From Vulcanisaeta distributa DSM 14429 (lineage in GTDB: Archaea > Thermoproteota > Thermoprotei > Thermoproteales > Thermocladiaceae), in NCBI RefSeq assembly GCF_000148385.1, contig NC_014537.1, positions 2,342,138-2,374,137 of the forward strand: a DNA stretch of 32,000 nucleotides. The letters are read 5' to 3'. A program made the position numbers and the translations under genes. The notes beneath the pieces are model-generated. The model had not been told where the DNA came from and made no database searches. It worked only from the letters and a program-made list of their open reading frames with translations. The stretch's first letter is position 1; every line of letters starts with the position of its first letter. This document shows, piece after piece, positions 3,785 to 29,670 of this stretch.

Positions 3785-4429
3785 TTGCGCATCATACGGT
3801 ATTGGGTGGTTTTTGTGAATTGTGATGGTCCAATCACAGTCCTCATAGGCAGTAGGGAGTTAATGGATTACGCAGAGCCCATACTGAGGGATTTCTTCGG
3901 TTCAGCATATAGATATGCGAGGGCCGTTGTTGATTATGGAGTTGGTTCTGTGGCACTGGCTGTTATTAATGAATCGGGCGTTGGCGCTGCCGTTTATTAC
4001 AGCGTTAACGTTGGTGCAGTTAGATTATGCGTTATTTATTACATAGCCGTTGTTGATGAATGCAGGGGTTTAGGTATTGGTAAGGTCCTAATGAGTACTA
4101 TTGAGGAGGTTTGCACGGACTCTGATATCTACATCGCCACTACCTGGTTCGGTAATGAGCCTGCCGATAGGCTCTATAGGTCGCTGGGTTACGTTGGTTA
4201 TACATGGGATGAGTTAAGGAGGTTAATTGGTAGGAGGGCCGTTGATAGGCTGCTCAAGGCTACCTGTGGTTATGATGACGACATGGCCTACGTAAAGCCT
4301 GTTATTGCAGGTAATGATGCATTGGATATTCTTAGACATATCATTGAGGGTGGGGATAACGATGTTAATAGGCTTTGGCGCGAAACATGCTTAGGTGTTT
4401 GGCTTAGGATTAGGGCTGGTCTTCGGTGA
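3785..4429 (+). CDS. GNAT-family N-acetyltransferase (start uncertain: TTG at 3785 or ATG at 3863)
   Basis: [22 protein letters not shown] carries the acetyl-CoA binding motif A (R-x-x-G-x-G). YRSLGY follows downstream. Confidence 0.6.
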
Positions 4430-4490
4430 ACTCCTTGCCTCACCCCTACTTAGTTTTTTAAGTAATAACCATTTATTTTTAGTGGAGAAT

Positions 4491-5561
4491 ATGCCAAAGG
4501 GGAGGAAGAAGGTGCAGGAGCAGGAAGTTGAGGAAGAGAAGGAAGAACCTGTTGAGGAGATCGAGGATACGGGCGAGGAAGGCGGTGAGAAGGGTACTGT
4601 TGTTACGGCAACAGTTAGTGGTTATCCTGTAATTGATGTTGAGGAAATTGAGGGCGTCGGTAGAGTCACTGCTCAGAAGCTTAGGGAGGCTGGTTATAAC
4701 ACGGCTAGGGACGTGGCCTTCGCGAGTGTCAAGGAGCTTGCCGAGATACTTGGTAGTGAGGACAGGGCTAAGCAAATAATTGCCGCTGCCCAGAAGCTCA
4801 TTGGCTTAACGCCATTCATAACGGCCTACGAGCTTTACGAGAAGAGGAGAGGTATTAGGAGGATTAGCACTGGCGTTAAGTCACTTGATGAGCTACTTGG
4901 TGGTGGTATTGAGACTAAGGCCATCACGGAGCTCGTTGGTGAGTTCGGTAGTGGTAAGACGCAGCTTTGTCATCAACTGAGTGTTATGGTTCAATTGCCC
5001 GAGGATAAGGGTGGCTTGAAGGCCAAGGCCTTATATGTCGATACCGAGAACACCTTCAGGCCCGAGAGGATAATGCAGATGGCTAAGTACAGGGGTTTAG
5101 ATCCGCAGGAGGCCCTTAAGAATATTTTATATGCCAGGGCTTACAACAGTGATCATCAAATGATGATTATTGAGGAGAGTAAGAAGATTATTGAGAAGGA
5201 GAACATCGGCCTAATAGTCATTGACTCATTGGTAGCCCACTTCAGGAGTGAGTACCCGGGCAGGGAGAATCTTGCCGAGAGACAGCAGAAGCTTAACCAC
5301 CACATTGCCCAGCTGCTTAGGATTGCGGATATATACAACGTGGCCGTCGTCGTCACCAACCAAGTGGTTGCGCAGCCGGATGTCTTCTTCGGGAACCCAC
5401 TAAAGCCCGCTGGCGGTAATGTAATTGCTCATGGGGCCACGTATAGGGTTTGGCTGAGGAAGGGTAAGGAGAATGTCAGGATCGCCAAGATTTTTGACTC
5501 GCCATACCACCCTGAGAGGGAGGTTACGTTTAGGATCACCGAGGAGGGTGTTGTTGACTAA
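4491..5561 (+). CDS. radA: DNA repair and recombination protein RadA
   Basis: Contains the HhH segment [17 protein letters not shown], Walker [10 protein letters not shown], Walker B LIVIDS, and the characteristic C-terminus. The ATG at 4491 follows T/A-rich promoter-like sequence. The track ORF start at 4395 lies inside the upstream gene. Confidence 0.95.
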
Positions 5562-7136: not shown

Positions 7137-8080
7137 GTGGTGCATCACGCCGCATCAATTTCCAAATCCACGGCGCCACGCTGACGGTAGATGGGGAATT
7201 ACATCCAAATTATGCATTGATGACACCACTAATCAAGGGCTTAGGCTCTCATAGAAAGGACACCTTCATGAGATTAATAGCCACAGATACAAGTCTGCTC
7301 TTTGCATATGCCGCAGATGGAACGGGAAGCTACAATGGAGGGCAACATGTTGGCTATGCAGTATCGAACGCCTATAAAATCAATGATGTGCCGGCCCCCG
7401 TCTGGCTTGCGAATAGAATTAATGAAATAACTGGGCTATCCATTAAATACGTTTACAGTTTCGTAATACGCTTTGATGAAGAGGACGGACGCATATTTGC
7501 CTGGCTAATCCTACGCAGCCTCTCAAATATTAATAATACGGCAATTAGGTTACCACTTACGTTATTCTATAGAATTAGCGACTTAATTAAGCACGCAGTG
7601 CTATCGCATCACGGCAAAGCGCTATCGCAAATCATTATACGAATGCCCTTAGCAAATAATGCGTTTAAAGAAGCTAAGTTGCACGTCGAGTATTACGCTA
7701 CGTATAGATTTAACGTTGGTTCGTCATTCGCTGAAGAGGCGAGGCAATTCGTAGAACTAGTAAACTCCATCCTTAAGGAGTTCGGAATAAATGAGCATTT
7801 GAAATACTACTTCTATACTGGTAAGGGTCTATCGATTACCGTTTCTAAGAACGTGATCCCCGCGTTACTAGGCATTGCGGACTTCGCAATCGTGCCTCAG
7901 TCCAGCGACCTCATAAACGCAATTAATAATGCGGACAAAGCCAGGCGCAAGGCATATGAAGTATTCCAGTACTTCGAAAGGAAGGGCGATTTATTGGAAT
8001 ACCTAAATTACGTCAAGTATTACGGAAACCCGTACAGCCATCCGTACAGCTTCTCCTCAGAAAGCACCAATTTAACATAA
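7103..8080 (+). CDS. Orphan ORF2 of the insertion (325 aa, no recognisable domain); possibly expressed as an ORF1-ORF2 fusion
   Basis: A long ORF whose frame opens at 7055, directly on the G GGA AAA heptamer. Confidence 0.55.
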   Translation: MPILSDFVYAIGGASRRINFQIHGATLTVDGELHPNYALMTPLIKGLGSHRKDTFMRLIATDTSLLFAYAADGTGSYNGGQHVGYAVSNAYKINDVPAPVWLANRINEITGLSIKYVYSFVIRFDEEDGRIFAWLILRSLSNINNTAIRLPLTLFYRISDLIKHAVLSHHGKALSQIIIRMPLANNAFKEAKLHVEYYATYRFNVGSSFAEEARQFVELVNSILKEFGINEHLKYYFYTGKGLSITVSKNVIPALLGIADFAIVPQSSDLINAINNADKARRKAYEVFQYFERKGDLLEYLNYVKYYGNPYSHPYSFSSESTNLT

Positions 8081-8324
8081 CCCTTTCCTCGATATGCATT
8101 CGAGCATTTTATACCTTAGCTTAACAACGTAAGTATTAAGAGATGATGCTTGCTCTGGCAAAGCAATTAGTAAGTCTATCAAGGTAACCAAAAACGATGA
8201 ATAATGTTCTCCTAAGCCTAGGCGCAGCGATGTAATAGCCAAAGAGAATAGGTAAGAGATTCTATTATTTTTATTAATTTCGTCTAATCAATTAGTAAGT
8301 TTTGCTCGCTGGAGCAATAAGCCC

Positions 8325-8329
8325 AGCCA
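8325..8329. repeat. Right copy of the 5-bp direct repeat (AGCCA)
   Basis: See 6469..6473. Confidence 0.7.
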
Positions 8330-9193
8330 GATATCCATCAATACCCTGAGTAATTTTGTGGCATTTACCGTCATGTAGAAATTGCTATTCCATAGCATTG
8401 GCACGTTTAGGTCATTCCCGTAAAACGCCCAGTTCCTGGAGAAGTTGTAGGGTATGAAGTCTGCCTTAACAGAAAGTACGGCATCGTACTCCTCATCACT
8501 CAACTCATCAAGGACCTTAATGCCATCACGTGCGATCAACCTTATAGCCTCCGCAACGTTGTGAAGGTGTGGTGTGGGTTCACCACCGACCCAGTTAATG
8601 TTGTGGACTCCCTCAAGCCTGAGGATGATTGCGGTCGAGGCTATTTGTCTTGGGTTCATAACGACTCCATTAAACCTATCCCTGCTTATGTCAGCGTTTT
8701 GGCAGAAGGCGCATCGGAGATTGCAGGATGTGAAGAATATGGTCCCGGAACCCATCACGCCGCGCAGTGGTAATTCCTCACCAAGGTGGTGAAAGTACGT
8801 GGATACTCGACTCGTGGAATCAAGCATGCATACGCCAAGCCTCCTGCCGCTCGTCCTATCAACCCTACAACGCCACTCACAGAATTCACAATGCTTAATC
8901 ATTCTTTTCGTGATCTCGGCAATTAGGTCTAGTAGTGATGGTGATGCCTTAGGCATGCCCTTAATATCCACCTCATTGTTCCTGACCCTGCGCCATAACT
9001 CGAGGAAGTCGTTTAAGGTCCTATCGAACTCTCTCCACAACTCGCTTTCGCTTAACTCAGTCAGTTTCTCATTAACGGGTATTCTAGCCGCTATGAGGTA
9101 CTTAGCCGGCTTCCTATTAATGGCTACCTCGTAGTACCAGGGCAGTTTGTCTCTGATGTACTTCCAAATCCATAGTCTTGAGAAATTAATCAC
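8325..9193 (-). pseudogene. N-terminal fragment of the interrupted PflX-type radical-SAM enzyme (pyruvate formate-lyase-activase-like)
   Basis: Contains the CNLRCAFCQN CxxxCxxC cluster motif, GGEPT, and ...NSNFYMTVNATKLLRVLMDIWL. After this, 11 foreign codons (8288..8324) precede the stop. GTG start at 9193, with a TATA-like CATTTTAAAGG upstream on the minus strand. Confidence 0.85.
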
Positions 9194-19511: not shown

Positions 19512-20318
19512 ATGAGGTCCATAATAACGTTACTCACGGATTTCGGCTATGAATCCTACTTCGTACCATCAATGAAGGGCGTAATACTCAGCCTAAACCC
19601 CAATGCCGTAATAATCGACATAACCCACGCAATACCTCAATTCAATGTGTATAAGGCGGCCTTCACGCTGTGGGCTTCATATAAGTACTTCCCCAGGGGC
19701 ACGATTCATGTGGTTGTTGTTGATCCGGGGGTTGGTACGTTAAGGAGGGCCATAGCCGTTAAAACGAGGAATTACTACTTCGTCGGGCCTGACAATGGCG
19801 TGTTAATGATGGCTGCGGAGGATGACGGTATAGTCGAGATCAGGGCAATCGAGAATAGGGAGTTCATGAGACCTGTGGTATCGAGTACGTTCCACGGTCG
19901 CGACGTGTTCGCTCCCGTAGCCGCGTATTTAAGCCTTGGACTTGACATATCACTACTGGGGCCTAGGGTTACGGACCCCGTCAGGCTTCAGGGCATTACG
20001 AGTAGGGTTTCCAGGGGCTTTGCTAATTCAGCCATTGTTTACATTGATCACTTCGGTAATGCGTACACGGGCATTAGGGAGGGTGAGCTTAAGATTCTTG
20101 GTCTTGAGTATGGAGATGAGCTGCGCGTTGTGATACCGAGGAGGAATGTTGACCTGAGGGTTAGGTTCCTAAGGAGTTATGGTTATGCCAATGAGGGTGA
20201 GGCATTGGCGCTCATTAATAGTGAGGGCTTCCTCGAACTATCAATAAATAGGGGCAGTTTTGCGCAGAGGTTTGGTGTTGAGGAGGGCGATGAGGTCGAG
20301 ATCTCCGTCATTAAATGA
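19512..20318 (+). CDS. S-adenosyl-L-methionine hydroxide adenosyltransferase (DUF62, fluorinase/chlorinase-like SAM hydrolase)
   Basis: ITLLTDFG...MKGVI...IIDITH...FP.GTIHVVVVDPGVGT.RR.IAV...YFVGPDNGVL is the family signature. The ATG at 19512 fits the upstream TATA. Confidence 0.85.
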   Translation: MRSIITLLTDFGYESYFVPSMKGVILSLNPNAVIIDITHAIPQFNVYKAAFTLWASYKYFPRGTIHVVVVDPGVGTLRRAIAVKTRNYYFVGPDNGVLMMAAEDDGIVEIRAIENREFMRPVVSSTFHGRDVFAPVAAYLSLGLDISLLGPRVTDPVRLQGITSRVSRGFANSAIVYIDHFGNAYTGIREGELKILGLEYGDELRVVIPRRNVDLRVRFLRSYGYANEGEALALINSEGFLELSINRGSFAQRFGVEEGDEVEISVIK

Positions 20319-20862
20319 GCATATTACTTGATGCGTAATTAAGGAGTTCCCTGAAGTTCTTTGTTAGTGTCGCATCATCAACTATGTATTGCCTAGGCAC
20401 CTTACCATTAACTACCTTAACGCCCTCCATCTCCAATAACTTGAATTTAACATTAACATCACCTGCCGAGTAGCCGCCCAATGAACCATCGCTCTTAATA
20501 ACTCTATGGCATGGGACGATCACGGGAAGCCTATTGGCGCTGGCTAGTTTACCAACGGCCCTGGGGCTGGTATTCAGTAACTTGGCTAATTGGGCGTAGG
20601 TGGCGACTCTACCCCTTGGTATTGAGAGCATGGCCACCTGAGCCAATCCAAGGAGGCCTGGGCTCAGTTCTAAGTACTTAATTATCTCCCGTGGCTCCAC
20701 CAACCCCATTATGTACTTGAGTAATACCTCGCTAACATGGCCTACGGTGCTTTCCCGAATTCCATCAACCCCAACCCTAACCTTAACCTCCCGAATCTTA
20801 TCACCATAAATACACACCTCCAGGGCGCCAACATCCTTAAGAAGCAATGTTATGCAACGCAT
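20311..20862 (-). CDS. ogt: O6-alkylguanine-DNA alkyltransferase
   Basis: Has the active-site PCHRV motif (VIVPCHRVIKSDGSLGGYS) and the HTH segment TYAQLAKLL. Confidence 0.9.
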   Translation of the reverse strand: MRCITLLLKDVGALEVCIYGDKIREVKVRVGVDGIRESTVGHVSEVLLKYIMGLVEPREIIKYLELSPGLLGLAQVAMLSIPRGRVATYAQLAKLLNTSPRAVGKLASANRLPVIVPCHRVIKSDGSLGGYSAGDVNVKFKLLEMEGVKVVNGKVPRQYIVDDATLTKNFRELLNYASSNMLI

Positions 20863-23097: not shown

Positions 23098-23190
23098 TTA
23101 CAATTCCTCCTCCCACTCCTCCTCAAATTCCTCCCACTCTTCCTCCTCCTCACCTTCCCACTCCTCCTCTTCCATGACTAGTTTGTTCAT
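23098..23190 (-). CDS. Candidate micro-ORF encoding a poly-Glu/Trp peptide (30 aa, or 25 aa from the ATG at 23175)
   Basis: MNKLVMEEEEWEGEEEEEWEEFEEEWEEEL-stop. TCTTTTAAG lies about 16-24 nt upstream of the ATG at 23190, and a T-run follows the stop. Too short for the supplied ORF track. Confidence 0.3.
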   Translation of the reverse strand: MNKLVMEEEEWEGEEEEEWEEFEEEWEEEL

Positions 23191-25196: not shown

Positions 25197-27845
25197 GTGG
25201 TCAGTAATAGGACGTTGCAGTTAATGTCTAGACTCTTCACAGCAGCGCTTTACCTGGCCATCTCCCTAATAGCATTTGTGATTGACTTCCCATTCTACCC
25301 AGTCCCAGTTGCGCTACTCATTATTGCGGTGACCACGGCACTGGCCTACTCAGGGCATGTTAAGCTTGGCTTTGCAATAATGACCATACTCCTAATACCC
25401 GCATTACTCTATGTTTATAAATACGCAGCCCTCGGCGTCCTACTCCTCATATTAATCCTCCTAATTCTAATCAGGGTCTTTGATTGGCTGGGTGTTGGCG
25501 TTGGTATGCTTGCCTGGGAATTCTCGATAATGCCGAACCCACTCTACGTCCTATCAGTACCCTTAATACTAACATCACCAAGCCTCACGATTGGAGTTAC
25601 GAAGAGGGTTACGCCACTTAAGTCATTGATAACGTTCTTAATACTGTACATACCAACGCTACTACTGCTTAACGCTAATAATGCCGTTACTCCCTGGTTT
25701 GGCTATGTAAGCATGAGCCTATCGCCATTGCAGTCATTAACTGCAGGTTCGATAATGACTGCCCTGGGTAGTATGGATGTGGGGCTTTATGGTTTATCCC
25801 AGGCGATTAGTAGGGTCTTTACCTGGGCTAGCACCTATGTGTTACCGCCGATAATGGCGTTGGCTGCCTATATTGCATATGTCGTATCAAGTAAGTTGAG
25901 GTCGCATGACAATAAGGTGGTTAGATTCCTCGCGCCCGCCGTTGGTACGATGATAGCCTACGCATTGATGACATACCTATTATTCTATATGAATCCATAC
26001 TTTGGGCTTTATCAGGGTATTGACGTTAATACGCTAATGCAGGGGTTACTACCTGCCCTAGTTATCAGCCTCGTCATACTACCATTAATAATGCACTTTA
26101 GGCTCGTTGAGATTAAGTTTGAGCAGGAGGAGAAGCAGTCAATGATCGCCCTTGAGCGTGGTTACCAATTAATCCTCAATAAGGATGAACTGAAGTCACT
26201 TGCCAATGAGTGGGACAGCGTGATTGGGCTCGATGATATTAAGAATGAGATAGAGACCTCGGTCATAACGCCACTTAAGGATGTTAAACTATCCCAGAAG
26301 TACGGACTAATGCCGATACATGGAGTCCTTCTATTCGGCCCTCCAGGTGTTGGTAAGACTATGCTCGCGAGGGCCATAGCGGGCAGGTTAGGTTGGACGA
26401 CAATAATAATGAACCTTGGTGAATTGCTCAGTAAGTACTATGGCGAGAGCGAGAACAGGCTGACCGAGCTCTTCAAGGTCGCTAGGAACTATGCGCCATC
26501 AGTAATAATAATTGATGAGTTTGATGCCATTGGTAAGGCTAGGACTAGGTACGTGAGTGATGACGTCACACCTAGGCTACTGAATATCTTGCTCAGTGAG
26601 ATGGATGGAATAACCAAGAGTAACGAGAATATCCTAGTGATTGGGACAACCAATCAGCCCGACCTTTTAGACCCGGCATTGCTTAGGCCTGGTAGGTTTG
26701 ACAAGGTCATCTACGTGCCACCGCCCAATGAGGAGACCAGGGCTAGGATGTTTGAGGCAATGCTTAAGGATAAGCCCATTCAGGGGCCAATTGATTATGC
26801 GAAGCTTGCTAAGATGACCGATAGGTTCACGGGCGCGGATATAATGAATGTGGTTAGGACGGCCGTGCTTGAGTCATTGAAGGAGGGTAAGCCCATAACC
26901 CAGGGAAAGCTTGAGGAGATAATCAATAGGTATAAGCCGAGCCTCACCTATGACCTGCTTGAGAAGTATGAGGCCTTTAGGCTTCAGTACAGTAGGTTGA
27001 GGACTTATGGTAAGGCCCAGGTTGGTATTCCAGAGGTTACTTGGAATGATGTTGGTGATCTTGAGGAGGTTAAGGAGGTCATTAATAAGTACGTGGTTGC
27101 CACAATGCAGAGGAGGGATATACTCGAGAAGTTGGGTATTGAGCCTATACACGGAATACTCCTCTTTGGCCCTCCGGGTGTTGGTAAGACCCTAGTTGCG
27201 AAGGCGACGGCTAATATGCTTAAGGCAAACTTCATAGAGCTTAATGGCGCCGAGCTAGCTAGGGTAGGCCCTGAGAGGGCTGCTGCCGTTGTTAAGGACG
27301 TATTTAATATGGCCCGTGACAACGCCCCAGCCATAATATTCATTGACGAAATAGACTCGGTGGCACCACCTAGAGATTCACCAACAGGCAGTGTTTGGTC
27401 TAACGTCATTGCCCAACTACTGACTGAGATGGATGGCCTGAGGGGTTTAAATAACGTCATTGTTATAGCAGCTACGAATAGGCCCTGGTTCATTGACCCA
27501 GCGCTGCTTAGGCCTGGTAGGTTTGACAAGGTAATTTATATACCACCACCGAATAGGGATGCCAGGCGTGAGATAATTAAAATACACATTAGAAATGCCG
27601 AGGTTGAGGAGGGCGTGATTGACTGGGTCGCCGAAGTTACTGAGGGCTATAGTGGTGCTGATCTGGCTGCCTTAGTTAGGGAGGCCAAGATGAGGGCTTT
27701 GGACAGGGTGTTGAGTGGTGATAATAAGGTTAGGATAACTAGGGAGGATTTCGAGTACGCACTTAGTAAGGTTCGTCCATCACTGAGTAGGGAGTTGCTT
27801 AGTCAGTATGAGGACTTTGTGAGGAGGGTTAACCTGATGGTTTAA
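25197..27845 (+). CDS. Membrane-anchored tandem AAA+ ATPase (polytopic N-terminal membrane domain plus Cdc48-like D1 and D2)
   Basis: The first 300 aa or so contain about 8-9 hydrophobic helices. Two complete AAA modules follow: Walker A GPPGVGKT twice, Walker B IIIIDEFD and IIFIDEID, and ALLRPGRFDKVIY twice. Confidence 0.9.
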   Translation: MVSNRTLQLMSRLFTAALYLAISLIAFVIDFPFYPVPVALLIIAVTTALAYSGHVKLGFAIMTILLIPALLYVYKYAALGVLLLILILLILIRVFDWLGVGVGMLAWEFSIMPNPLYVLSVPLILTSPSLTIGVTKRVTPLKSLITFLILYIPTLLLLNANNAVTPWFGYVSMSLSPLQSLTAGSIMTALGSMDVGLYGLSQAISRVFTWASTYVLPPIMALAAYIAYVVSSKLRSHDNKVVRFLAPAVGTMIAYALMTYLLFYMNPYFGLYQGIDVNTLMQGLLPALVISLVILPLIMHFRLVEIKFEQEEKQSMIALERGYQLILNKDELKSLANEWDSVIGLDDIKNEIETSVITPLKDVKLSQKYGLMPIHGVLLFGPPGVGKTMLARAIAGRLGWTTIIMNLGELLSKYYGESENRLTELFKVARNYAPSVIIIDEFDAIGKARTRYVSDDVTPRLLNILLSEMDGITKSNENILVIGTTNQPDLLDPALLRPGRFDKVIYVPPPNEETRARMFEAMLKDKPIQGPIDYAKLAKMTDRFTGADIMNVVRTAVLESLKEGKPITQGKLEEIINRYKPSLTYDLLEKYEAFRLQYSRLRTYGKAQVGIPEVTWNDVGDLEEVKEVINKYVVATMQRRDILEKLGIEPIHGILLFGPPGVGKTLVAKATANMLKANFIELNGAELARVGPERAAAVVKDVFNMARDNAPAIIFIDEIDSVAPPRDSPTGSVWSNVIAQLLTEMDGLRGLNNVIVIAATNRPWFIDPALLRPGRFDKVIYIPPPNRDARREIIKIHIRNAEVEEGVIDWVAEVTEGYSGADLAALVREAKMRALDRVLSGDNKVRITREDFEYALSKVRPSLSRELLSQYEDFVRRVNLMV

Positions 27846-27913
27846 TTGGTTTTATCTTCTAAGGAGATTATTGTGGGCTTAGTAATTTAAAGGCGCCTTT
27901 TCACAGTTTTGTC

Positions 27914-28744
27914 ATGAGTCAAAAACCTGAAGCATTGAAGAATGTAATCGAGGAAGTTACGAAATTGGTAAAGGAGGGGTATTCCCTAACCGGCATTGTG
28001 AAGGAGGTTACTGAGGCGATTAATAAGGACGTTGGCTTGAGCAAGGTAATATTCAATGAGATAAAGGAGTCAATGGTTAAGATAAGCCCCGGCAACGTGC
28101 CTGTAGGCCTATTCACGCAATGCGCACTAATACCCAGTTATTACCTGACCGGTAAGACTCCAAGCATTGATTGGGGCGACGTGACAATGCACCTACTGGG
28201 TAAGATGATACACAGCCTAGCCATTGCCGAGATAAAGAACAGGCTTGGTAGCAAATGCATAGAGGGTGTTGAGGTCATGTATACGTACAATGCCTGGACA
28301 ATGAGGGGTAAGCCGGACCTTGACTGTGGTAATTACTATCTTGAGTTTAAGACGATAATGGGTAGGGTTACGAAGGCCAGGTTATTCCACGACATGATAC
28401 AGGCGGGTTTCTACTCGGCGGCGGGTAATAAAAATACATACATACTTTACCTAGTACTTAGCGATGGTGTGTTGCGCAATATAGTGCCTATCGAGATCAT
28501 ACCGGAGGTTGGTTACCCAGTTATTTATGCCTTTAAGCTTTGGGTAAAGGCCGTGGAGGGTGGTGATATCGGGGCATTAACGGTTAAGACGACGTCATGC
28601 AAGGTGTGTAGATTTAGGAACATATGTATAATGAGAACTAGGAATCCGCATGAGGTGTTCCTACCAGGTAAGGAATTGCTTGATAATTATCTCGACTACG
28701 TAAAGCACGAGGTTTCTAAGGCGGGGGTTAAGGTGGTTGGTTGA
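27914..28744 (+). CDS. Cas4-like / RecB-family PD-(D/E)xK nuclease with a 4Fe-4S cluster motif (stand-alone)
   Basis: Motifs appear in canonical order: N-terminal Cys (FTQCAL), GKMIHS, GKPDLD, YLEFK (ExK), QAGFY (QxxxY), and the C-terminal CKVCRFRNIC (Cx2Cx5C). Confidence 0.7.
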   Translation: MSQKPEALKNVIEEVTKLVKEGYSLTGIVKEVTEAINKDVGLSKVIFNEIKESMVKISPGNVPVGLFTQCALIPSYYLTGKTPSIDWGDVTMHLLGKMIHSLAIAEIKNRLGSKCIEGVEVMYTYNAWTMRGKPDLDCGNYYLEFKTIMGRVTKARLFHDMIQAGFYSAAGNKNTYILYLVLSDGVLRNIVPIEIIPEVGYPVIYAFKLWVKAVEGGDIGALTVKTTSCKVCRFRNICIMRTRNPHEVFLPGKELLDNYLDYVKHEVSKAGVKVVG

Positions 28745-29670
28745 TGAGCCTCGAGGAAATAACAGACCTGGCAAATTACCTACTGAATAGGTTGCAGCTT
28801 AGGGATACCCACTTCGTAACGTCGATAGCCAGGTGCTCATTGCTCTCGCTGAGGAGGGACGTTAGTATAATGGACGAGGCTTACAGTGAGTATTTGCCGA
28901 GGGTATTGACAGTATGTGCCACGGAGAAGCATGTAATTAGGGTTGAGGATGTGACTATCGAATTACCAAGGCTCCTTAGGTGTGGTGATTCATTAGTATT
29001 GCCAAAGCTCATGCTCCTTAAGGACAACGTCAGGTCTCACATAGTTGAGGCATTGCTGGTGGCTGCGCTGCTTAATACCGAGATTCAATTGCACTATTTA
29101 TCTAAGAACATAAGTGGTGATATTGAGGAGGGTTTATCAATAACTATAAAGCCCGAGTGGGGTAAGGAGTTGCTCAATGCTGTCATTAATTCATTAAGGA
29201 ACAAGGAGGTTGGCGTTAAGACTATTAGTTGTGCCATATGCCCATTAAGGGATGTGTGTCCATTCAGTAAATTGGGCGATAAGGTGGTACTACCTGATGA
29301 AACCGTGAAGATCGTCGATGAGCTTTACGGCCAGTTAATTACGGAACCAGTAATTATGCAGGAGGAACGTGGTGCGGGGACCTTGACGCCGCCAAGCACG
29401 TTGGATAGGGAGGGTATTAGGAATTACTTGAGGCAGGTGGCCAATTGGGCGCGTTCTCATGGTAGGACGTGGGTTAGCGTGGCTGTTGGTAAGTGCCCAG
29501 TGTGTGGTAGGGAGGGTACACTGGTGATTAGGATAACGAGTGGTGGTGAGAAGGTTGTCTATAGGCATGGTTCCTCAACCTGCACTGTGGGTACCATAGA
29601 TGAGTCAGCGGATAAGATAGGCATTGATAGGTTTTTAGAGATTGAGGGCATTGGGTCAGGAAATAAGTGA
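28744..29670 (+). CDS. Degenerate Cas4-like Fe-S domain protein fused to a C-terminal zinc-ribbon domain
   Basis: Retains the N-terminal Cys (IARCSLLSLRR) and CAICPLRDVC (Cx2Cx5C), but I cannot find the H, ExK or QxxxY catalytic motifs. The C-terminal domain has CPVCG...HGSSTC. Its ATG overlaps the upstream stop (TGATG). Confidence 0.5.
   Translation: MSLEEITDLANYLLNRLQLRDTHFVTSIARCSLLSLRRDVSIMDEAYSEYLPRVLTVCATEKHVIRVEDVTIELPRLLRCGDSLVLPKLMLLKDNVRSHIVEALLVAALLNTEIQLHYLSKNISGDIEEGLSITIKPEWGKELLNAVINSLRNKEVGVKTISCAICPLRDVCPFSKLGDKVVLPDETVKIVDELYGQLITEPVIMQEERGAGTLTPPSTLDREGIRNYLRQVANWARSHGRTWVSVAVGKCPVCGREGTLVIRITSGGEKVVYRHGSSTCTVGTIDESADKIGIDRFLEIEGIGSGNK

Follow-up and report, generated by a model that had tools for sequence, protein, structure and literature searches.

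Solo-Cas4 proteins of archaea (COG1468/DUF83; Hudaiberdiev et al. 2017, PMC5704561) are Cas4-family proteins encoded away from cas genes, and a single member has been studied biochemically, in recent work (PMC12501428). In Vulcanisaeta, a lone solo-Cas4 was reported that evolves fast and does not group with any of the others (PMC5704561). Here, we describe two adjoining genes, termed P1 and P2, in 32,000 nucleotides of Vulcanisaeta distributa DSM 14429 (contig NC_014537.1, positions 2,342,138 to 2,374,137 of the forward strand), a stretch that is called the window and numbered from its first letter. P1 is an open reading frame (ORF) for 276 residues at 27914..28744 (+ strand) and P2 an ORF for 308 residues at 28744..29670 (+ strand). 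The explanation that we favour as a whole, and hold to be slightly better than an even bet, is that P1 is a nuclease and P2 its duplicated, non-catalytic, DNA-binding relative, both expressed from an autonomous two-gene leaderless operon of the Vulcanisaeta core chromosome.

P1 resembles the described solo-Cas4 proteins in its RecB motifs, its C...Cx2Cx5C cysteine pattern and its fold, as well as in its location outside cas loci, its vertical inheritance and its ordinary-gene evolutionary pace (PMC5704561). It differs from them by an N-terminal extension of about 58 residues, by two extra cysteines and by scores far below threshold. Moreover, in Vulcanisaeta it comes with a coupled and apparently inactivated paralogue that goes unmentioned in PMC5704561. 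P1 is plausibly the published Vulcanisaeta solo-Cas4, and P2 was evidently left out of the Cas4 count of that study.

The closest sequence relatives found for P1 are nucleases of rudiviruses, namely SIRV2 ORF207/gp19, SRV ORF199 and MRV1 ORF211, which have in common with it the catalytic motifs, the four cluster cysteines and an extra cysteine pair (C115 and C138 in P1). These viral proteins of about 200 residues have neither an inactivated partner nor a zinc-ribbon protein. Their gene overlaps the end of an upstream gene for an ATPase or 'Holliday junction helicase' of about 435 residues (L020:1-1065, L021:1-1023 and L022:1-1015), which is another partner than that of Vulcanisaeta. At a greater distance, RecB/RecC and AddA/AddB follow the same logic of an active PD-(D/E)xK nuclease with a related inactive module; AddB has a Cx2Cx5C iron staple, and RecC has a dead nuclease domain working with the RecB nuclease. 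These are large helicase-nuclease machines that have no sequence relation to P1 and P2 beyond the superfamily. A preliminary description of the window had likened the pair to AddA/AddB; this holds for the loose logic of an active and an inactive paralogue and not for the motor, as no superfamily 1 helicase was found in the operon or beside it, where the neighbours are a double-AAA ATPase and a riboflavin synthase.

Two further systems bear on the comparison. Type I-A CRISPR-Cas uses two co-encoded Cas4-family paralogues, Cas4 and Csa1, and both were found to be required (PMC5704561); they lie in a cas operon with cas1 and cas2 and carry no zinc-ribbon fusion. The TTV1 protein TP1, from a virus infecting Thermoproteales, is Cas4-derived like P2; catalytic residues have been lost from it, another residue stands in for the motif III Glu, and its function is now to bind DNA (PMC4625639). 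TP1 is a split N-terminal half without iron-sulfur (Fe-S) cluster and a structural virion protein, whereas P2 has the whole fold, all the cluster ligands, an added zinc ribbon and a chromosomal location. The ingredients of the locus are known already, be it solo-Cas4 (PMC5704561), paired Cas4 paralogues (Cas4/Csa1) or an inactivated Cas4 (TTV1 TP1, PMC4625639). In the literature searched, no description was found of a chromosomal solo-Cas4 coupled to an inactivated, cluster-keeping paralogue with a PSV-ORF131-like ribbon. The pair had been put forward as not characterised, which stands for the partner, undescribed in that literature, and goes too far for P1, the fast-evolving Vulcanisaeta solo-Cas4 having been noted before (PMC5704561).

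P1 contains the Cas4/RecB motifs over 28121..28627 (+ strand for all positions given here). These are the first cluster cysteine in FTQC(70)AL (C70, 28121-23), the motif I histidine in GKMIH(100)S (H100, 28211-13), the motif II aspartate in GKPD(135)LD (D135, 28316-18), the motif III residues in YLE(144)FK(146) (E144, 28343-45; K146, 28349-51), the QhxxY motif Q(163)AGFY(167) (Q163, 28400-02; Y167, 28412-14) and the Cx2Cx5C motif C229-KV-C232-RFRNI-C238 (28598-28627). They lie in a nuclease core (residues ~59-245) that follows a helical N-terminal extension of ~58 residues and precedes a C-terminal helix. Motif invariance was assessed on 10 P1 and 11-14 P2 orthologues of 43-98% identity, and the catalytic and cluster residues of P1 were found invariant in its 10 orthologues, down to 68% identity. 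The key residues also align with their counterparts in SIRV2 gp19, SRV ORF199, MRV1 ORF211 and SSO0001.

Profile comparisons point in the same direction. P1 had no match in Pfam, PF01930 included, while the PADLOC Cas4 model matched its residues 71-238 with E 1.4e-5 (positions 13-167 of the 168 in the profile) and PHROG 1706 ('CRISPR/Cas system associated') with E 1.9e-6 over nearly its full length; both are non-curated Cas4 models, and their E-values were significant for P1 only and not for P2. Tblastn of P1 against phage and archaeal-virus genomes returned weak matches, to rudiviral Cas4-like nucleases only, at 26-31% identity, the best being SRV ORF199 (E 2e-4, 31% identity), along with SIRV2 ORF207 and MRV1 ORF211. 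Aligned by hhalign over 143 columns, P1 and the three rudiviral proteins gave a probability of 95.7% and E 8.4e-9. Direct searches of PDB sequences, whether with the two proteins or with profiles of their families, yielded no meaningful match; SSO0001 (4ic1) was reached only by a profile that combined P1, P2 and the rudiviral proteins, with E 4.1e-4 over residues 13-204/206 and with the first cysteine, the CxxCx5C motif and the motif I and II residues (His and Asp) all paired. The AlphaFold2 (AF2) model of P1 has a predicted local distance difference test score (pLDDT) of 49 overall and of about 55-79 in core residues 100-215; it is poor because only 10 close orthologues entered the alignment. 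With this model, the top Foldseek match was nevertheless 4ic1 SSO0001 (E 4.6e-6), followed by RecE, MGME1, Exo5 and RecB nuclease domains. On all sequence criteria save the curated thresholds, P1 is a complete Cas4-family nuclease, and it would be expected to cut DNA and to bind an Fe-S cluster. The full motif set in order that the preliminary description had credited to P1 is thus present and invariant, and the PD-(D/E)xK core is borne out by motifs, profile comparison and the fold match to Cas4 SSO0001.

P2 residue numbers follow the 309-residue translation of the ORF list, which starts P2 at TTG 28741. The codon at this position is GTA, TTA or CTG in other Vulcanisaeta loci and the next one is always ATG. 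As the ATG is constant across loci and the TTG codon variable, the start was placed at ATG 28744 (308 residues). The N-terminal domain (28744..29295, +) has a Cas4 fold with a degenerate active site according to hhalign, AF2 and Foldseek. It retains C32 (in IARC(32)S), C59, C81 and C164-AI-C167-PLRDV-C173, and the third cysteine motif of P2, C252-PV-C255-G...H276-GSST-C281, belongs to the C-terminal domain. The cluster cysteines (C32, C164/167/173) are invariant, also in P0028 (277 residues, 43% identity to P2), the full-length cluster mate of the divergent metagenomic protein P0024.

The P1 and P2 families were aligned by hhalign with E 1.5e-5 to 3.4e-5. The confident stretch pairs P1 184-241 (IEIIPEVGY...VKTTSCKVCRFRNIC) with P2 125-176 (ITIKPEWGK...VKTISCAICPLRDVC); for the rest of the pairing, extended hhalign and an independent MAFFT alignment that included the rudiviral nucleases agree. 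In this pairing, the first cluster cysteine C70 of P1 corresponds to C32 of P2 and C229/232/238 to C164/167/173, while the extra cysteines C115 and C138-G139 face C59 and C81-G82. At the catalytic sites, the motif I H100 is replaced by D45, the motif II D135 by L78 and the motif III E144 by L87; the motif III K146 is kept as K89 (R in P0028). The conserved H159 ahead of QhxxY has H100 as its counterpart, whereas Q163 and Y167 of QhxxY are replaced by E103 and V107. P2 therefore lacks the canonical Cas4 catalytic motifs, carrying D45, L78, L87-P-K89, E103 and V107 at the aligned sites; L78, L87, E103 and V107 are the same in all P2 orthologues. It matched neither TIGR00372 cas4 nor Pfam PF01930.

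The AF2 model of P2 has a pLDDT of 65, with 66-86 in residues 58-200 and 74-87 in residues 222-300, and its order of strands and helices is that of the P1 model. In the PDB, Foldseek placed SSO0001 (4ic1_B) first with E 2.7e-3 and probability 1.0, followed by a DinG-associated nuclease, MGME1, RecB and the Cas4 Pcal_0546, 4r5q being matched as well. Among viral models, it matched SRV DUF83 (E 6.3e-4), AFV1 ORF223 (7e-4) and phage Cas4-like proteins. Between the two domains, the linker (29296..29406, +) comprises a helix and a low-confidence, fast-evolving segment, with pLDDT <50 at residues 202-213 and with length and sequence varying among orthologues. P2 is, as judged from sequence and models, a Cas4-fold derivative with a degenerate site and not a canonical Cas4 enzyme, and it is probably inactive in catalysis. 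This agrees with the initial view of P2 as a protein with the four cluster cysteines and without the His, D/ExK and QxxxY residues, apart from the retained K89, and both hhalign to P1 and the Foldseek match to SSO0001 give it a Cas4 fold, not an unrelated one.

P1 and P2 overlap by one base, the P1 stop TGA (28742-28744) and the P2 ATG (28744-28746) using the same A; the junction (28731..28746, +) also includes a Shine-Dalgarno-like AGGTGGT at 28731-28737. Both ORFs at 27914-29670 and the start of P2 on the stop of P1 (TGATG), as first described, were confirmed from the sequence. The junction reads TGATG or TAATG (T(G/A)ATG) in all 15 of the other Vulcanisaeta loci whose pair is intact; AGGTGAT or AGGTGGT is kept across them, 6 nucleotides 5' of the junction. 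This arrangement suggests translational coupling of the two genes. Upstream of P1, a conserved element TAATTTAAAGG resembling a TATA box with transcription factor B recognition element (BRE) is predicted at 27883..27893 (+), its 3' end lying 20 nucleotides ahead of the P1 ATG and its TATA core about 25 nucleotides upstream. In 11 of 12 further Vulcanisaeta loci, the sequence TTAGTAATTTAAAGG precedes the P1 ATG by a constant distance, with the variants ATTATTTAAAGG in V. thermophila (L001) and TTAGTTATAAAAAG in L014; the intergenic DNA around it diverges between loci while the element itself is kept. By comparison with known crenarchaeal promoter architecture, it would act as a promoter. Within the pair, a conserved TATA box precedes P1 only and not P2, and its position relative to the P1 ATG implies a leaderless bicistronic mRNA. 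The downstream riboflavin synthase gene (RibC) has an apparent TATA-like element of its own.

The pair has a fixed place in the genus. The order AAA ATPase-P1-P2-RibC was observed in 15/15 Vulcanisaeta loci with enough sequence, which come from V. distributa, V. thermophila, several JCM isolates, metagenome-assembled genomes and metagenome contigs. Between the window and V. thermophila, the longer order QRPTase-THUMP-dehydrogenase-L31e-AAA-P1-P2-RibC-GH57 is shared and the neighbourhood is the same over 12 kb, with P1 and P2 being 68% and 50% identical to the window proteins. Pairwise medians of the ratio of nonsynonymous to synonymous substitution rates (dN/dS) were 0.059 for P1 and 0.125 for P2, compared with 0.066 for the AAA gene and 0.036 for RibC, and within P2 they were 0.084 in the N-domain, 0.35 in the linker and 0.157 in the zinc-ribbon domain; all these values are approximate, dS of 1.3-1.8 being near saturation. 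P1 and P2 are clearly under purifying selection, the degenerate nuclease domain of P2 included. A pseudogene status of P2 was rejected, dN/dS being well below 1.

Beyond Vulcanisaeta, P2 is scarce. The P2 profile, used as a hidden Markov model (HMM) for an exhaustive search of 1.84 billion representative proteins, gave six matches: Vulcanisaeta proteins or fragments, the divergent P0024, the ribbon-only P0027 and P0026, which was dismissed as a relative since it is a repetitive false positive. Word-indexed homologue searches recovered only Vulcanisaeta proteins, and one seeded with P0028 added nothing and missed P0028 itself. Scans of metagenomes and genomes used Vulcanisaeta-specific peptide patterns and yielded Vulcanisaeta loci only; Caldivirga, Thermocladium, Pyrobaculum or Thermoproteus may still have an analogous pair. 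From these searches, P2 appears confined to Vulcanisaeta and one divergent lineage, and the pair is best read as a vertically inherited, lineage-specific element in a fixed housekeeping neighbourhood.

Several observations weigh against the favoured explanation. On the side of P1, the curated model TIGR00372 cas4 gave only 15.5 bits (E 0.012), where the cutoff is 65. The AF2 models, built on shallow alignments, reach low to moderate confidence (pLDDT of 49 for P1 and 65 for P2), and the Foldseek TM-scores of the P1 and P2 models against Cas4 structures reach only 0.3-0.47; the near-saturated dS has been mentioned. On the side of P2, invariant D45/E46, H100 and E103 as well as K/R89 remain, so that the loss of the motifs is no proof of inactivity, and a solo-Cas4 of M. 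mazei is reported to cleave DNA without having the RecB motif (PMC12501428). The linkage of the two genes, proposed as a feature to be found in other genomes, is seen in all 15 Vulcanisaeta loci and breaks down in L019, a 4.2-kb hot-spring contig (JGI metagenome 3300034696, Ga0370516_008710) with the sole divergent P2 orthologue recovered. There, P0028 is preceded by genes for a UbiE-type methyltransferase and a secreted-type protein of 519 residues (L019:2126-3700), and no P1 adjoins it; P1 could lie elsewhere in the source genome.

A second set of sequences also separates P2 from P1. In L007, L009, L010 and L011, from several samples, an extra, inverted copy of the region lies beside an intact pair (L010:5685-7691; L007:8875-12011 reversed; also in L009 and L011). 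The P1 of this copy is reduced to remnants, residues ~118-129 and 250-276, the first being fused in frame to the end of a 448-residue ORF with a LAGLIDADG-type motif (LAGALDGDGT), and the TGATG junction has become CGATG. Its P2 is an intact ORF of 200 residues without zinc ribbon, with all six cysteines, 75% identity to the intact copy and a dN/dS of about 0.08. The persistence of a ribbon-less P2 beside P1 remnants suggests that P2 may have a P1-independent role, which also counts against the favoured explanation. Reading the truncated L010-type copy as a loss of the pair was rejected, as this inverted copy is additional and adjoins an intact pair. An Rfam search of an odd GC-rich stretch of L010 found nothing.

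These cases lend themselves to another view, according to which P1 and P2 are co-transcribed but independent, or P2 restrains P1, as a decoy or inhibitor of a potentially toxic nuclease or as a DNA-binding or regulatory protein similar to TTV1 TP1. In line with it, TTV1 has exapted an inactivated derivative of Cas4 as a nucleocapsid protein that binds DNA (PMC4625639), and overexpression of the M. mazei solo-Cas4 was reported to reduce growth (PMC12501428). It has to be set against the strict one-base overlap and gene order in 15/15 Vulcanisaeta loci and against the retention of Fe-S ligands in P2, needless for a pure DNA-binder and lost as a cluster in TTV1 TP1. In addition, L019 is only a 4-kb contig, so that a P1 gene could lie elsewhere in that genome. 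We regard independence or restraint as rather improbable.

The origin of P2 is hinted at by the extra cysteine pair. In P1, the codons of C115 and C138 lie at 28256-28258 and 28325-28327 (+), and in P2 those of C59 and C81 at 28915-28917 and 28981-28983 (+); both pairs are invariant. The pair is common to P1, P2 and the rudiviral nucleases of SIRV2, SRV and MRV1 and is absent from SSO0001. It marks a Cas4 subgroup and could form a disulfide or a second metal site. P2 aligns with the rudiviral proteins by hhalign with only E 0.044, its strongest link being P1. This stronger link to P1 fits a duplication of a P1-type gene followed by fast divergence, and such a duplication seems the best reading of the origin of P2.

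The C-terminal domain of P2 (29407..29670, +) is predicted to combine a helix with a type-2 zinc ribbon (C252, C255, H276, C281). The CPVCG...HGSSTC motif of the additional domain noticed at the outset is present, and its four ligands are invariant, P0024/P0028 and P0027 included. Residues 249-289 matched Pfam PF22415 (PSV ORF131-like) with E 1.7e-4 and 21.9 bits, below the gathering cutoff of 27, and beyond it no Pfam family matched P2. By Foldseek, the C-terminus matched the BFVD model Q6ZYH1 (PSV ORF131) with E 0.01, probability 0.97 and 26% identity; by sequence, the match to PDB 2x5c had E 0.35. PSV ORF131 (PDB 2X5C) appears to resemble the P2 C-terminus in profile, fold and CPxCG knuckle. 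It is a stand-alone viral protein of unknown function, and the ligand set of P2 is Cys2-His-Cys. PSV ORF131 was classed as a type-2 zinc ribbon, a class that often binds nucleic acids via its three-stranded sheet (PMC5906684). P0027, a metagenome protein of 171 residues with a transmembrane segment, has a CPxCG...RHG...C ribbon at its N-terminus and is otherwise unrelated to P2. The ribbon would be a mobile module in crenarchaeal proteins, because the same one sits in this unrelated protein.

The viral relatives of both proteins invite the view that the pair is a domesticated module of a virus or mobile genetic element, or a stand-alone nuclease for defence against such elements, captured from a crenarchaeal virus and now degrading invading DNA that the P2 ribbon targets as foreign. 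Its basis is that the best profile and pairwise matches of P1 are viral (PHROG 1706, SRV, SIRV2, MRV1), that the extra cysteine pair is common with rudiviral proteins and not with SSO0001, that the P2 C-terminal domain resembles PSV ORF131 and that defence roles for solo-Cas4 were suggested in the literature (PMC5704561) and in the preliminary description. The surroundings of the locus speak otherwise. Its chromosomal position is fixed with the same flanking housekeeping genes throughout the genus, no integrase, att site, tRNA or defence neighbour was seen, and the GC content is even across the window and unremarkable. IMG/VR scans with P1 and P0028 found no relatives, a plasmid search with P2 found none either, and a search of phage records with P2 gave chance Hoc matches only; in those records, P1 had weak matches to rudiviral Cas4-like proteins and no others. 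The low dN/dS is unlike an arms race, and any capture would be ancient. PADLOC run on the window returned no specific defence match and only generic AAA+ cross-matches. An integrated element or a defence island was rejected on synteny, composition and PADLOC results, and the defence setting first imagined for the pair did not hold up, the locus being a fixed housekeeping neighbourhood across the genus without defence neighbours. A viral or defensive module is accordingly a quite unlikely explanation.

The same neighbourhood bears on a link with CRISPR. Pfam annotation covered most plausible ORFs of at least 100 residues in the 32-kb window and revealed no genes other than housekeeping ones; those identified include S11, L14e, L31e, RadA, lumazine and riboflavin synthases, QRPTase, a THUMP protein, AOR, DHDPS, a GH57 enzyme and O6-methylguanine methyltransferase. 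No cas genes were found among these ORFs and no CRISPR-like array in the window, nor were cas genes or arrays found in the flanks of 15 related loci with neighbours examined. The Pfam, PADLOC and array scans thereby uphold the earlier statement that cas1, cas2, effector genes and repeats are missing from the 32 kb. P1 is called a 'solo' Cas4 because no cas1/cas2 or CRISPR array adjoins it. For V. distributa and V. moutnovskia, the PMC5704561 supplement lists one solo-Cas4 each, besides 2-3 Cas4 genes associated with type I-A. As distant type I-A CRISPR-Cas systems exist in Vulcanisaeta genomes, the pair may still act in trans from outside a CRISPR context.

The pair could in this case be a trans-acting accessory of CRISPR adaptation, a displaced part of a type I-A adaptation module and not a repair factor, in which P1, with P2 playing the part of Csa1, would trim and orient prespacers for distant Cas1-Cas2. 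There is a precedent in P. furiosus Cas4-2, whose gene stands alone although spacers depend on it for their proper length and orientation (PMC7293040), and in the Cas4 and Csa1 paralogues of type I-A, neither of which is dispensable in S. islandicus (PMC5704561); the presence of CAS-I-A Cas4 genes in Vulcanisaeta agrees with this view as well. However, 2-3 CRISPR-associated Cas4 genes per genome are already at hand, and neither P1 nor P2 matched the Csa1 Pfam model (COG4343/PF06023) at E <= 1. Moreover, a study of the co-occurrence of solo-Cas4 and CAS-Cas4 saw no evidence of functional connection (PMC5704561), and the locus is syntenic with housekeeping genes, like which P1 and P2 evolve. Taken together, a dedicated adaptation accessory seems unlikely.

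In the explanation that we favour, P1 would be the fast-evolving archaeal solo-Cas4 of Vulcanisaeta, a metal-dependent PD-(D/E)xK DNA nuclease in which a [4Fe-4S] cluster on four cysteines staples the N-terminal to the C-terminal part. After duplication, P2 would have kept the fold, the cluster ligands and the extra cysteine pair, while its metal-binding Asp and Glu and its QhxxY motif would have disappeared and a type-2 zinc ribbon, typically nucleic-acid-binding, would have been added at the C-terminus. The one-base overlap would lead to roughly equal co-production of the two proteins. These would most likely form a hetero-oligomer, in which P2 binds or positions DNA via its ribbon and its dead nuclease groove and P1 cuts. 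Type I-A Cas4 with Csa1 offers a precedent for joint action of two Cas4 paralogues (PMC5704561), and P. furiosus Cas4-2 one for a part played in adaptation by an isolated cas4 (PMC7293040). DNA ends or single-stranded overhangs are the likely substrates, and the pathway could be chromosomal repair or recombination, possibly also prespacer trimming for the distant type I-A CRISPR, or both. We infer the physical complex, its substrate, the DNA-end-processing role and the pathway from the features described above.

A more specific and doubtful proposal is that P1 and P2 constitute an obligate heteromeric Fe-S nuclease, with the dead but cluster-bearing P2 as DNA-recognition or gating subunit. By analogy, P2 would compare with the dead nuclease domain of RecC or with the overhang-sequestering role of Cas4, and selection of particular DNA ends, structures or sequences would fall to the zinc ribbon together with the [4Fe-4S] cluster of P2 itself. 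If true, this would give the enigmatic archaeal solo-Cas4 a two-subunit mechanism in chromosome maintenance. Under the favoured explanation, a dedicated, co-translated and inactivated partner with a predicted nucleic-acid-binding ribbon would provide a handle on solo-Cas4 substrates. The locus would also be a cellular example of Cas4 inactivation and exaptation with the Fe-S cluster ligands kept, and a cluster retained in P2 would bear on its structural versus functional role. The scope is narrow, a lineage-specific elaboration and not a widespread system, as P2 does not extend beyond Vulcanisaeta and a single related lineage.

Among the neighbouring genes, the upstream one (25197-27845, +) encodes a double-AAA (Cdc48-like) ATPase of 882 residues. 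Its first ~300 residues resemble a polytopic membrane domain, which is unusual for the Cdc48 type, and it forms its own transcription unit. It was considered as an IetA/TRIP13 defence component and rejected, the PADLOC matches reflecting generic AAA+ similarity. RadA, of the Rad51 family (4395-5561, +), and O6-methylguanine-DNA methyltransferase (20311-20862, -) are separated from the pair by 22 kb and 7 kb; no linkage to it is implied, because both are scattered among unrelated housekeeping genes. In V. thermophila, a Cdc6/Orc1 gene (L001:11058-12263) was observed about 3.3 kb downstream of the pair, just past the part covered by the window, and the locus may on this account be close to a replication origin. 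In the JCM drafts L012, L016 and L018, apparent frameshifts around 7170-8910 affect P1, P2 and the AAA gene; they were read as sequencing errors, because the neighbouring AAA gene is equally affected. Finally, a short, imperfect, TCC-rich low-complexity repeat was found at 23102-23173, in the intergenic region upstream of the THUMP-domain gene.

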